This document shows positions 3,001 to 6,000 of a DNA stretch of 7,762 bases, one piece after another. A program made the position numbers. This stretch comes from Candidatus Nanohalobium sp. Lineage in GTDB: Archaea; Nanohalarchaeota; Nanosalinia; Nanosalinales; Nanosalinaceae. The number at the start of each line of letters is the position of its first letter. Positions within the stretch are counted from its first letter, which is position 1. The stretch spans positions 1-7,762 of the forward strand of contig JBDGTY010000045.1 of assembly GCA_042216335.1 (NCBI GenBank). The letters are read 5' to 3'.

Positions 3001-6000
3001 CAGAGGGTTCGTGGTCTAGTTGGTTATGACACCGCCTTGACAGGGACTGGTTACGCTCAGGTCCATACGCAAGAAACCATGCTACGCATGGCTTGCAGCG
3101 GAATCAGCCCACAAATTGGCGGAGATCCCCGGTTCGAATCCGGGCGAACCCATCGCCTCCCGAAGCGGAGTGGCCGAAACTCTTTCAGAGTTTCTGGTGA
3201 CACACAAAATCGCAAGATTTTGGAGTCGCACGCTTCAAACCGTGTTCCACACGGCTTTCGGGAAGTTCTGATTCCAAAGTGCGTTCAGCTTGTCTGAATG
3301 CTCTATTGGGTTGGCGTACCGTAAAACGCCGGGAAAGTAGCTCAGTGGTTAGAGTGCTGCGCTCATAACAACCAAGTTGTGAGCGATGAGGGTTGCAGCC
3401 TTTTTCTGGAAAGGCTGCTTGAGAAGACATCGTGTCTTCGTGCCCGATGATTATTTAGGTTCCAGAACCGTGAGGTACGCAGTGGTCCCGGGTTCGAATC
3501 CCGGCTTTCCCAACTCTGTTTTTTCTCTGCTTGAATAAAAGAGAAGGAAGTTGAAAGAATTAGGCTGTTATTGCCCTCATTTCCGAGATGCAGTTTCTGT
3601 GGCAGTAGCCTTCCATCGTTTTGAGGTGTTCGTCGGCTTTGTGGACTCGGCTGCCGCAGAGAACGCATAGTCCAAGTTTAGTTTTTGCCATTTTCCCTCC
3701 CCCTGGAAATTATATGTTCGTTGTGCTGCCGTTTAAAGAAATGTGTGGAGGAGTCCGATACTACCGAGGGGTTAATTCTACATCTTTTCTATGCTTCGAC
3801 CATGTTTTCTCCTTTGTCGCGTTTTCTGAGGTATCTGTACTGTATGTCGATGTTTTCGAAGGGAATCACCGGTTTTCTGGCTCGTCCTTCTTTTTCGAAG
3901 TACAGGATGCCCATTCTTTCCAGTAGCTTGAGATCCTGGTCGACTTCTCTGAGTCCTCTGTCCAGTTCCTCGGCTGTCTCGCTTATGCTGGAGGGCCGTT
4001 CCTCTTTGACGAACTCTGTCAGCTCTCTCCTCTTCGGAGTCATCAGCTTTCTGAGATGCTCCGGCCTGATGTTCTTGGTTATGTAGGGTTCATCTTTCTC
4101 CAGGGCGTTCTTCAGCCCTTCCATCGATTCAGCCGCCTCTTCATCTGGCAAACTGGTTATCACAAGGTCCTTGCCCTTCAGTTCTTCTGGTTCCAGCGGC
4201 ATGTCTTCAATCTTCATGGTGTTCTTCCACCTCTTGTTTGAACTTTTTCCAGAGCTCTTCCATCGCCTCAACCACCTCTTCAGTGTTATCAGGATCTACA
4301 TCCCTGAATGGGTCTTTTATCGGCCGGGTTGAGCTCTCCTTTTCTATGTGTTTGTGGCGTCTGGCTGCGTGTGCATTATTGGCGTTATCGTACCTGAGGA
4401 CTGTCTCGCCGTCTTTACTGTAGTCTGTGGCCTGTATATTGTACTTCAGGTTGTATCTGAACTCGTCGCTATCCTCCAACTTCCACAGAGTCGCTACTAT
4501 GTCGATGTCATCTCCTATGTAGTCTTCTCTCTGCCATATCAGTTCCGCCAACTACCACACCTCCTCTTTATGGGTCCTATCCATAAATACTTTTGGTCTG
4601 TTTGAATAATACTTGAAGGTGCCGAGGATTCACTGGTGGGCGAAGAAGAACACTCCTTCCGAATCACATCGGGCGAAACCGAACCGCTCGAACTGCACGA
4701 CTTCTCCAATTTCTATATCGTTCGGCTCTATGCGGCCCTCAACAGTGCCTCCATCCGGCATCCTGACTTCGGCAGTCTCCGCGTATTTTGGTGCCCAGTG
4801 AATGAAGTCCACATCATTCTCCAGCGCATCTTTGTGGTCGCCTTCGCGGAACTCTGCCTCTCCACCCTCAATTTCTACGTTGCAGAGGCCTTTCAACCGG
4901 TAGAAGCCATCATTAAAGTCACTGGCATCGATGAAAACCTCCAGTTCTCCGTCCTCAATCTCTAGTTCCGGCGACCTGATGCCTCTCTCCGGGTGCTCTG
5001 GATGGACCTCCATCTCGGCCTTCAGATCTTCAGGAACTCCAGTAACCTTCAGCTTCTCCGGTTCTCCCACGAAGAAATACCTGTCTGCTTCGTCGTCGAT
5101 CACGCGCGTGTTCTCCTTCTCCAAACTTTCGATACTGGCGTCCACATCGTTCTCCGTCACGCCCATCTCAACGAAGAACTCTCTGATGGCCTCCGGCTGG
5201 AAGCCACGCCTCTTCAAAGCTCTGAGCGTCGGTGCTCGTGGGTCATTCCAGCCCTCAAGCTCCCCACTTTCTATCATATTTGAAAGCTCTGAGCCGGACA
5301 CAGGAGCGTTGAAACCGGAGATTTTAACATTGCCCCAGTGCCTCACATTTGGGTACTCCCAGTCAAAGTAGTCGTAGATGAACTTCTGGCGTTCCTTTGA
5401 TGCTCGAAGGTCTTTCCCGCGGAAGATGTGTGTCGTACCCATCATATGGTCTTCGACGGCGCCCTGGAAGTCAAGCATCGGCCAGACACGGTACTCATCA
5501 CCAGTGATAGGGTGGTCAGGCTCTTCGATAATCCTGAAGGCCACGAAGTCTCTGACAGCAGGATTCTTGTGCTGCATATCTGTCTTTATCTTCAGCACGG
5601 CCTCGCCTTCGGCTAAACCGCCATTCTTCATCTCTTTCCACATCTCCATATTTTCTTCGGCACTCTGGTCTCTGTGAGGACACGCTTCTCCCTCTTTCCG
5701 GTATTTCTGGCCTTCCTCCTGCGAACACTTACAGACGTAGGCTTTATTCGTCTCGATAAGCTCTTCAGCGAATTCTATGTACTTGTCAAAGTTCTTGGAA
5801 CTGTACCGCACCTCATCAATTTCATAGCCCAGCCACTCGTAGTCTTCTTTAAGCATCTCGTACGCATCATATTCGTCGTTCTTCAGCGGCCTCTTCGTCA
5901 CCGGATCGGTGTCGTCGTATCTCAGTATCAGTTTTCCGACGTACTTCTGCTTCAATTCGCCGTTGATAATCATTCCACGGGCGTGTCCGACGTGTGGAGG

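Follow-up and report, generated by a model that had tools for sequence, protein, structure and literature searches.

A Bulge-Helix-Bulge-Type Intron in a Nanohaloarchaeal tRNA-Val(GAC) Gene and an RNA Module Shared with Other tRNA Introns and 3′ Trailers

Introduction

The origin and movement of archaeal tRNA introns of the endonuclease type are an open question. In the Thermoproteales, near-identical introns were found in different isoacceptors (Fujishima et al., 2010, Mol Biol Evol 27:2233, as presented in the review PMC4090602), and the section of that review devoted to them takes the sharing as intron gain after speciation, with the bulge-helix-bulge (BHB) motif defining the possible sites and the mechanism given as unknown. 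In the Asgard archaea, one study describes repeated gains on many branches and non-canonical introns missed by annotators, and leaves the route of arrival open (bioRxiv 10.64898/2026.10.13.758758). Both studies document gains without a route. Population-level disruption of tRNA genes was reported for Caldiarchaeum subterraneum (PMC3293823). In Nanoarchaeum equitans, C/D box sRNAs were located directly behind tRNA-Val and inside the tRNA-Met intron, and their mobility was proposed by the authors (PMC3491384). With respect to the nanohaloarchaea, our literature search on tRNA introns returned no dedicated study; a survey predicting tRNAs for one nanohaloarchaeon is available (PMC5829648).

The locus reported here, a nanohaloarchaeal tRNA-Val(GAC) gene, resembles the transposed introns of the Thermoproteales in that introns of non-orthologous tRNAs share sequence. 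It differs from them in its host lineage (Nanohaloarchaeota) with a single 188-aa EndA, in that what introns have in common is a module and not an entire intron, in the presence of this module also in 3′ trailers, and in the alternation of unrelated intron types at one site among close relatives. As described in the N. equitans paper, a small structured RNA is found right after tRNA-Val or in the tRNA-Met intron, where RNase Z or the splicing endonuclease would make its end; unlike those sRNAs, the module named here type A has neither C/D boxes nor a recognised target, and their C/D-guide behaviour is matched only by the Met intron (and by that of Trp, by inspection). As in the Caldiarchaeum and Asgard cases, intron presence differs among close relatives. 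The Asgard study reportedly did not find that copying from one tRNA gene to another is a general route, whereas copying of a defined module and an intron nearly identical in two diverged genomes are visible here.

Results and Discussion

The tRNA-Val(GAC) Gene and Its Intron

The window, that is, the whole stretch of DNA analyzed, is 7,762 nucleotides long. It belongs to a tiny nanohaloarchaeon of salt lakes (Nanohaloarchaeota, DPANN) with a genome of 1.02 Mb that is 96% complete. The tRNA-Val(GAC) gene is located at 3005-3152 (+ strand, like all features below unless indicated) and was identified with ARAGORN allowing introns and with the Rfam tRNA model, which gave 54 bits and 76 inserted positions 3′ of the anticodon. 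Plain ARAGORN, run without introns, yielded no tRNA match at the locus, and in E-value mode the tRNA was the sole Rfam family matched between 2950 and 3560. The gene consists of exon 1 (3005-3042; tRNA positions 1-37, ending in A37), a 74-nt intron at the canonical 37/38 site (3043-3116) and exon 2 (3117-3152), which correspond to gene positions 1-38, 39-112, and 113-148. In addition to the Rfam alignment of both exons, the boundaries are fixed unambiguously because the orthologs of two congeners, G001 and G003, are uninterrupted and join the exons directly, with identities of 74/74 and 72/74, respectively. The interruption of this gene, and the contiguity of its exons in a congener, had been stated in an earlier note on this DNA and are confirmed. 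It must be noted that the congener called G003 in that note is our G001, whose intron sizes match those given there (58, about 60, and 75 nt). ARAGORN proposed an intron of 53 nt for Val-GAC, which is wrong given the 74 nt obtained from the uninterrupted orthologs. As expected for a BHB intron, the insert separates tRNA positions 37 and 38, and its removal leaves a standard tRNA. An intronless allele (joint 3042>3117) was present in the metagenome run that best represents the locus; at this locus, the four DNA runs examined contained only pieces of the contig and joints from other organisms. Among the runs listed for positions 2900-3600, none was an RNA run.

Upstream of the gene, a TATA-like box (TTATTTAA, 2962-2969), 36-43 nt from the tRNA, is a putative promoter, and the block GAGTTATTTAAGCNTAACCAAAGAA is kept in all four congeners. 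A 10-nt complement to the module loop at 2969-2978 was taken as a chance match because it is not conserved in the congeners.

In the MFE fold, the splice sites of the Val-GAC intron sit in a 6 × 7 internal loop. The strict hBHBh′ motif, with two 3-nt bulges and a 4-bp helix, was not found in this gene, which has a relaxed version of it: between the bulges, at most UUG/CAA (3 bp) and an A·A mismatch can be drawn by hand. The genome encodes the splicing endonuclease EndA as a single 188-aa ORF (PF01974, 92.6 bits) and the ligase RtcB (PF01139, 535.6 bits). The tRNA-Val(GAC) gene is a normal one, split at 37/38 by a BHB-type intron; considering this gene set and the fold, the intron is presumably excised by the single endonuclease, after which RtcB would join the exons.

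Structure and Distribution of the Type A Module

The type A module with which the intron begins is a structured, covarying RNA element spread through the Nanohaloarchaeota. Its hairpin 1 (3044-3064) has the stem GGAC-UG / CA-(G)-GUCC and the 8-nt loop GUUACGCU. When 41 copies are aligned, 93% of the hairpin 1 cells pair, against 61% in shuffles (none of 500 reached 93%) and 19-47% in slid controls, and compensatory changes were observed in all six pairs; RNAalifold returned the same hairpin. The alignment also contains 13 U·G pairs, every one of them on the tRNA strand. The linker ACGCAA (3067-3072, within the pattern match 3050-3072) is followed through its last nucleotides into hairpin 2 (3069-3096; GCAAG-AAA-CCAUGC ... 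GCAUGG-CUUGC), which is paired in the MFE fold and whose place in other copies is also occupied by a hairpin, of different sequence. Of the 50 family genomes, 32 contain the strict module pattern; for the phylum the figure is 42 of 70, and the reversed pattern, used as control, gave 0 matches in each of the 70. Loop and linker are conserved phylum-wide, the invariance of ACGCAA being due to the fact that the pattern was defined with it. The module is multi-copy, with up to 15 per genome, and its stems vary around a conserved core.

Type A modules are not only pieces of introns, since they occur immediately downstream of tRNA genes as well. Of the 41 distinct copies, 20 are located within tRNA introns, 8 follow a tRNA 3′ end without a gap, 2 are antisense, and 11 are unclassified; these counts are biased towards tRNA genes because the DNA of the relatives was taken around T-loop or pattern matches. 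All except two (39/41) are on the tRNA strand. Five genomes have the module in the Val-GAC intron, and three have it in the trailer of that gene; trailer copies are followed by T-runs. The copies begin exactly at the splice site or the discriminator, without a common target word. In our reading, the module always has the orientation of the tRNA gene and stands either at the start of an intron or directly 3′ of the discriminator base, and at both places a cut made in tRNA processing would release it with an identical 5′ end. Both this RNA-level release and a function for the module are inferences.

Modules Shared within the Genome

In the source genome (G000), the introns of Val-GAC, Trp, and Thr-UGU are 93% alike over their first 30 nt and share modules with 86-93% identity over 29-51 nt. 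Sharing was also detected between the Arg-UCU and Ala-CGC introns and between those of Gly-UCC and Ser-UGA, so that our sequence comparison agrees with the three groups listed in the earlier note. Altogether, six pairs of introns from non-orthologous tRNAs were alike, with E-values from 6e-4 to 4e-12. The Trp intron has one conserved core, while its add-on modules differ between G000 and both G002 and G003.

Within the 3′ trailer of tRNA-Val, positions 3153-3265 form an element of several hairpins that is homologous to the tRNA-Arg(GCG) intron, positions 6-87 of which, on contig C35, are 82% identical to 3157-3233. The tRNA-Val spacer of G002 has the same layout and is opened by UGGUUACGCUC. 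A diverged type A copy (3275-3330, − strand) abuts the 5′ end of tRNA-Met; in G001 and G002 the corresponding position is occupied by an intact copy, and the copies of G000 and G003 have lost the loop motif. In addition, GAA...TTC hairpins are enriched in tRNA genes, which contain 30 of the 537 and make up 0.5% of the genome. The GA-flanked hairpins were compared with kink-turns (L7Ae sites), which require tandem sheared G·A/A·G pairs beside a helix: GA is the usual 3′ flank, and on the 5′ side there are copies with GA and copies with AA.

Intron Alleles in the Congeners and the Family

The four congeners compared were G000, G001, G002, and G003, whose proteins are only 68-77% identical. ARAGORN allowing introns reported 33 tRNA genes in G000, 22 of them interrupted by introns of 26-213 nt, the same numbers as in the earlier note, and missed at least three further interrupted genes. 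Since many of these genes are mis-sized or missed by standard tRNA finders, the tRNA counts obtained for genomes of this kind are too low.

Five introns of this genome had been said to be missing from a congener with identical or nearly identical exons. Besides Val-GAC, the inserts of Leu-GAG, Leu-UAG, Ser-UGA, and Gly-GCC were indeed absent from G001 and G003, but in G002 all five genes carry an intron at the same site. The identity of the exons between G000 and G001 held for Val-GAC and Ser-UGA (92/92), was lower for Leu-GAG (79/85) and Leu-UAG (77/83), and reached only 64/72 in Gly-GCC. The G002 introns of Leu-GAG and Ser-UGA are unrelated in sequence to those of G000, so replacement occurs in addition to gain and loss. 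Two further genes had been proposed to have introns only in the congener. This is correct for Ile-GAU, intronless in G000 and interrupted in G001, but not for Val-UAC, in which G001 has a canonical 49-nt intron and G000 a D-loop intron of about 32 nt that ARAGORN missed.

Gly-UCC has three states among the congeners: G000 and G001 share type B, G002 carries type A, and the site of G003 is empty. Of the 50 family genomes, 20 have an uninterrupted Val-GAC gene and 13 carry an intron at its 37/38 site, which is of type A in five, of type B in seven, and of another sequence in one; empty and split states coexist within four genera. Intron turnover is real, its direction (gain or loss) being unrooted. 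Calling this turnover recent and assigning it to this genome is too narrow as to the genome, as the polymorphism runs through the whole family, and too broad as to recency, because of this family-wide range and of the protein divergence of the congeners; "recent" is suited only to particular cases like Lys-UUU.

The Lys-UUU introns of G000 and G002 differ at 1 of 156 nt, while their exons differ at 5 of 76 and their flanks are 30-84% identical. The full 156-nt intron was found in only these two of the 50 genomes, which have about 71% protein identity. The split required by the five introns (G000 and G002 against G001 and G003) was rejected by concatenated proteins, with AU p values of 0.003 and 0.001 in quartet tests of 12 and 16 proteins drawn from tRNA neighbourhoods. 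Votes of individual genes for the three possible splits were 8, 5, and 3, with five genes favouring the one shown by the introns, and the species history itself is consequently unclear. The PPase was discarded as a marker, being too short and, in G010, a member of another genus, 94% identical to that of G000, against 86-88% in the congeners.

Possible Origin and Proposed Exchange of the Introns

We consider, with belief and doubt about evenly balanced, that the BHB introns of this group are assembled from RNA modules linked to tRNA genes and pass from one relative to another, probably by recombination that uses the invariant exons. Two routes of change would operate. By the first, modules would be copied between tRNA introns and trailers inside one genome; by the second, co-occurring relatives would swap complete intron alleles, be they empty, type A, or type B. 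The exchange would most likely take place by homologous recombination with the nearly invariant exon cores as arms, and breakpoints were mapped in a single gene, that of Lys-UUU. Nevertheless, the 99% identity of the Lys-UUU intron could alternatively be due to strong selection on the RNA.

An alternative, to which we assign a minor share of probability, is that the modules are functional small RNAs, C/D-box-like or of a new class, which ride on tRNA transcription and processing for their own expression; introns would persist where the RNA is useful, and turnover would be gain and loss of RNA genes. The sRNAs located next to tRNA-Val and within tRNA-Met in N. equitans provide a precedent (PMC3491384), the phylum-wide conservation of loop and linker and the T-runs behind trailer copies are in line with it, and L7Ae and fibrillarin are encoded in G000. 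A further point in its favour is tRNA-Met(CAU) (3331-3512, ARAGORN), whose intron of 109 nt (3368-3476) has counterparts of 109-117 nt, 83-88% matched, in all three congeners. This intron contains the guide GUUGUGAGCG with an AUGA box (3376-3389), able to form a 10-bp duplex with tRNA positions 30-39 in which C34 is paired with the nucleotide five positions upstream of the box (N+5), and the same guide is present in the four genomes. The Trp intron behaves here, by inspection, like a C/D guide, and that of haloarchaea is reportedly a guide according to work by Clouet d'Orval and colleagues from 2001. On the other hand, inspection of the Val-GAC intron (3043-3116) revealed neither a C (RUGAUGA) nor a D (CUGA) box, and no cis-guide match was obtained for it. 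A cis-guide search over all introns gave 19 duplexes against 13.4 expected from shuffled pairings, only that of Met being consistent, and a guide role for introns in general was rejected for want of a signal outside Met. In about half of the GA-flanked hairpins, by inspection, an A occupies the position at which a kink-turn requires G. An 8-mer complement to the loop would be expected in 23S rRNA; no rRNA motif was found in the assembly when targets of the loop were sought, and this idea was dropped.

A purely vertical history, with ancient introns that drift and are repeatedly and precisely lost (e.g., by recombination with cDNA of spliced tRNAs) without exchange or module copying, appears improbable. 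It would account for the Met and Trp introns, which are homologous in the four congeners and carry guide-like elements, and for the patchy distribution in the family, which fits many losses; an ORF with a reverse-transcriptase domain is also present in G000. However, it does not readily account for two unrelated intron types at the Val-GAC site, the three states of Gly-UCC among four congeners, or one 30-nt module start in three non-orthologous tRNAs, and descent at such protein divergence would hardly yield a Lys-UUU intron that is more alike than its own exons.

It also seems rather unlikely to us that the GUUACGCU module is a mobile RNA element of a new kind carried on tRNA transcripts, which would be freed by RNase Z or the endonuclease and would move between trailer and anticodon loop by cutting and RtcB joining at the RNA level, followed by copying into DNA, thereby creating introns that relatives then swap by recombination through the invariant exons.

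Finally, selfish DNA repeats (MITE- or REP-like palindromes) with tRNA introns and trailers as permissive sites and the RNA structure as a by-product, an idea to which the copy number, the variable stems around a conserved core, and an IS605 OrfB/TnpB-like ORF within the window lend some appeal, are an unlikely explanation, as PF01797 gave 0 matches to a Y1 (IS200/605 TnpA) transposase in the 96% complete G000, the copies keep to the tRNA strand and start at splice sites or discriminators instead of at a common target word, and the 13 U·G pairs would be C·A mismatches on the opposite strand, so that the palindrome is not strand-neutral.

With regard to the assembly and exchange of introns from tRNA-linked modules, the family offers unusually clean material: exons identical across genera, three states at one site, a near-identical intron in two diverged genomes, and a defined structured module that occurs in introns as well as in trailers. 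Closed single contigs are available for several of its genomes, which makes a whole-genome census of the module feasible.

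The tRNA-Val(GAC) gene and its intron

The tRNA-Val(GAC) gene (window 3005-3152, +) scored 54 bits with the Rfam tRNA model, with the four arms intact and 76 extra positions aligned after the anticodon GAC. No tRNA was detected in the window by ARAGORN without its intron option, while both tRNA-Val(GAC) and tRNA-Met(CAU) were called when introns were allowed. The program's intron size of 53 nt for the former was discarded as wrong, since uninterrupted orthologs place an intron of 74 nt (window 3043-3116, +; gene positions 39-112) between tRNA positions 37 and 38. The predicted precursor fold (-60.3 kcal/mol, z = -3.35) comprised the cloverleaf arms and an intron helix, with the splice sites inside a 6 x 7 internal loop. 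As judged by eye, the central helix that this loop can form has no more than 3 bp (UUG/CAA) plus an A.A mismatch, and the bulge-helix-bulge motif is therefore relaxed and not strict. We conclude that the intron is mechanistically an ordinary one of the endonuclease type, whose body represents one copy of a structured RNA module linked to tRNA genes.

The window is contig C40 of an assembly (G000) of 1.02 Mb in 74 contigs, with a G+C content of 49% and rated 96% complete; the best relatives of its GluRS gene were Nanohaloarchaea records (65-83% identity). A single splicing endonuclease, in one 188-aa frame, was found in G000, which also encodes RtcB, L7Ae and fibrillarin. The 22 interrupted genes among 33, with introns of 26-213 nt, that an earlier note had reported were recovered exactly by ARAGORN with introns. 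This count is an underestimate, given that adding the inserts of Val(UAC), Leu(CAA) and Leu(CAG) raises it to at least 25 of 35 recognisable tRNA genes. Val(UAC) has an insert of about 32 nt within the D-loop, Leu(CAA) a non-canonical one, and Leu(CAG) (C45:~21830-22105, +; 270 nt long) two. The exon-like word GTGGTCAAACTCC is present three times in the D-loop insert of Leu(CAG), which suggests that this insert grew as the exon-intron junction was duplicated in tandem. A 'Ser-CGA' call of ARAGORN was rejected, as the G3:U70 pair seen by inspection shows the gene to be Ala(CGC).

Intron content of the congeners

The genus consists of four genomes. In the other three (G001, G002 and G003) the tRNA genes were located by the T-loop word GTTCRAATC, and their neighbourhoods were fetched and analysed with unchanged ARAGORN settings, giving interrupted genes in 33 of 40 cases in G002, 22 of 40 in G001 and 15 of 37 in G003. 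The genome used for comparison in the earlier note corresponds to G001, because the intron sizes quoted there (58, about 60 and 75 nt) fit it. The five genes described in that note as having an intron that a genome of the genus lacks were indeed uninterrupted in G001, and also in G003; the exon identities between G000 and G001 were 74/74 for Val-GAC, 79/85 for Leu-GAG, 77/83 for Leu-UAG, 64/72 for Gly-GCC and 92/92 for Ser-UGA. In G002 all five were interrupted as well, and therefore none of the introns is confined to G000. Regarding the two genes said to show the reverse, Ile-GAU is uninterrupted in G000 and interrupted in G001, as claimed; Val-UAC does not belong there, since G000 has a D-loop intron in it. 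Introns of the D-loop type were found in Val-UAC of G000, G002 and G003 and a canonical one in G001, with both present in G002.

Alignment of orthologs showed introns that were plainly homologous, some of them with internal expansion (Leu-UAG in G000 and G002, Thr-UGU, Ala-CGC), and those of Met and Trp were homologous across all four congeners. The core of the Trp intron was kept in the four genomes, with add-on modules on its 5' side that differed between G000 and the pair G002 and G003. At Leu-GAG and Ser-UGA, unrelated intron sequences occupied one site in G000 and G002. The four genomes gave three states at Gly-UCC, where G000 and G001 share one intron type, G002 has a different one and G003 has none; the groups at Arg-UCG were G000 plus G003 and G001 plus G002.

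The tRNA-Val(GAC) site across the family

The uninterrupted Val-GAC gene was searched against 50 family genomes from 21 genera. It gave 20 full-length matches, all with at least 91% identity, and matches split into positions 1-38 and 39-74 in 13 genomes, both states being found within four genera. The introns at this site belonged to at least two unrelated types, plus a further variant in one genome. Type A, present in G000, G002, G010, G012 and G025, starts with a hairpin with loop GUUACGCU and continues with ACGCAA and a further hairpin. Type B, present in seven genomes of four genera, is made up of CCCGA, a hairpin, a GA-flanked GAA...UUC hairpin and GGGCAAAU.

A structured module linked to tRNA genes

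The strict word GTTACGCT-N4-12-ACGCAA of type A was present in 32 of the 50 family genomes and in 42 of 70 phylum genomes, with up to 15 copies per genome, and the reversed pattern, taken as a control, had no match in any of them. When 41 distinct copies were aligned, 93% of the cells of the stem around the GUUACGCU loop paired, compared with 61% in shuffles (0/500 reached the observed value) and 19-47% in slid controls; that the loop and ACGCAA never vary is a consequence of the search word. Compensatory changes were observed at all six stem pairs, with U.G at one pair in 13 copies, and RNAalifold recovered the identical hairpin. The strand bias and the U.G pairs favour a structure at the RNA level.

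Twenty of the 41 copies lay in tRNA introns, mostly at their very start, eight immediately behind the tRNA discriminator and two in antisense orientation just upstream of tRNA-Met, while 11 had no automatic assignment (several of these stand, by eye, behind acceptor-like ends); these counts are biased towards tRNA genes, around which much of the DNA was fetched. Among loci fetched by pattern alone, 18 of 30 were classed as intron or trailer in our own tally. At Val-GAC, the module is part of the intron in five genomes and of the trailer in three others (G032, G042 and G047).

The tRNA-Val trailer in the window (3153-3265) is a multi-hairpin element related to, though diverged from, the intron of tRNA-Arg(GCG) (G000 C35:16971-17179), positions 3157-3233 matching it at 82% over 82 aligned positions, and a decayed antisense module copy adjoins tRNA-Met. 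Judged by their sequences, modules have evidently been copied between tRNA genes within one genome. The G002 counterpart of the trailer opens with UGGUUACGCUC, like a type A module with two hairpins inserted.

Intron families common to unrelated tRNAs have been reported in Thermoproteales (via PMC4090602), and the likeness to the module described here lies in the sharing of intron sequence by unrelated tRNAs. Repeated tRNA intron gains have been described in Asgard archaea (bioRxiv 10.64898/2026.10.13.758758) and tRNA-sRNA dicistrons and an intron-borne sRNA in Nanoarchaeum (PMC3491384). A survey with tRNA predictions for one nanohaloarchaeon links loop inserts of the DPANN endonuclease to more disrupted tRNA genes (PMC5829648). 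No dedicated study of nanohaloarchaeal tRNA introns was found in the literature. What is mainly new here is the GUUACGCU module found across the phylum, together with the alternation at one site of unrelated intron types and an intron nearly identical between two diverged genomes.

No Y1 transposase was found in G000. An ORF with a reverse-transcriptase domain (C23:1082-1405, -; 47.9 bits, model positions 100-205) lies in a 187-aa frame of this 1-Mb genome. An IS605 OrfB/TnpB-like ORF (window 7042-7761, +) at the window end scored 29.5 bits, below the Pfam cut-off of 30.5, and at 3789-4271 (-) and 4207-4551 (-) a TumE-like toxin ORF adjoins an HVO_A0114-family ORF.

Proposed exchange of intron alleles

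The five introns require the split G000,G002 / G001,G003, which was rejected by concatenated orthologs (AU p = 0.003 for 12 proteins, 0.001 for 16), the remaining two quartets being indistinguishable. Protein identity among the congeners was only 68-77%. Single genes voted 8, 5 and 3 for the three splits; therefore, the congener genomes are mosaic or nearly star-like and the quartet test has limited power.

The clearest sign of recent intron movement came from Lys-UUU. Its 156-nt intron differed by 1 base between G000 and G002, with 5/76 differences in the exons (the acceptor-stem changes compensating each other) and 30-84% identity in the flanks just outside the gene. The full intron was present in only these two of the 50 family genomes, and the gene is patchy across the family, contiguous in at least 11 genomes and with introns of varied length elsewhere.

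In attention to these data, we conclude that the tRNA intron alleles of this family are often exchanged and replaced. The exon cores, which do not vary between genera (100% identity), would offer ready homology arms for such an exchange, and we infer that recombination through them accounts for precise loss, gain and replacement, for the conflict with the protein tree and for Lys-UUU. The intronless Val-GAC allele was found at high depth in the metagenome run best covering the window, a co-occurrence that would also explain why many contigs end in tRNA genes. The assembly probably breaks at these genes owing to exons that are 100% common with co-occurring relatives. Contig ends in or beside tRNA genes were seen in C46, C47, C53, C62, C63, C66, C74, C37, C49 and C4, and in run X1 coverage over tRNA exons was 10-30 times higher.

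The pyrophosphatase beside tRNA-Val (window 2135-2674, -) is 94% identical to the copy of G010, which belongs to another genus and also has a type A Val-GAC intron, and only 86-88% identical to the congener copies.

Introns of tRNA-Met and tRNA-Trp

ARAGORN with introns placed tRNA-Met(CAU) at window 3331-3512, with a 109-nt intron at 3368-3476. At 3376-3389 this intron has GUUGUGAGCG and then AUGA, with a predicted pairing to tRNA positions 30-39 in which the fifth nucleotide from the box (N+5) faces C34 of the tRNA that carries the intron, an arrangement present in all four congeners. Inspection of the Trp core showed a similar guide of 7 bp for C34. The Met and Trp introns, which are the stable ones of the set, look like classical intron-borne methylation guides. 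No guide signal was detected in the other introns (19 matches, 13.4 expected). The box-like words GAUGAGG and CGAUGAUUA also occur in the Met intron.

GA-flanked hairpins and related elements

G000 has 537 GAA-stem-loop-stem-UUC hairpins, 30 of them within tRNA genes (0.5% of sequence); for other head/tail words the figure was 1-5 of about 200-330, except for words overlapping those hairpins. The hairpins may be kink-turns, with flanks that vary between GA/GA and AA/GA from copy to copy. At C48:2093-2185 (+), a GA-flanked hairpin about 60 nt behind tRNA-Arg(UCU) precedes a repeat of the T-arm and of the 3' acceptor strand of that gene, slightly diverged from the first copy, and this duplicate may be the footprint of allele replacement or integration. 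Just behind other tRNA genes (C63:~3225-3320, -, in G000, and C27 and C12 in G002; loci L170, L164 and L165) lie elements of about 83 nt with a paired stem resembling an acceptor, a T-arm and, in place of the D and anticodon arms, a GA-flanked hairpin. The intron palindrome GAARATC-N3-GATYTTC recurs outside tRNA genes in G000 (C29:2219-2235, C16:4749-4765, C52:16047-16063 and C59:1703-1719, for example), one copy being just downstream of the L7Ae gene. Several such palindromes are preceded on the opposite strand by ATGAC, as if encoding a common N-terminus (MTKI.DF).
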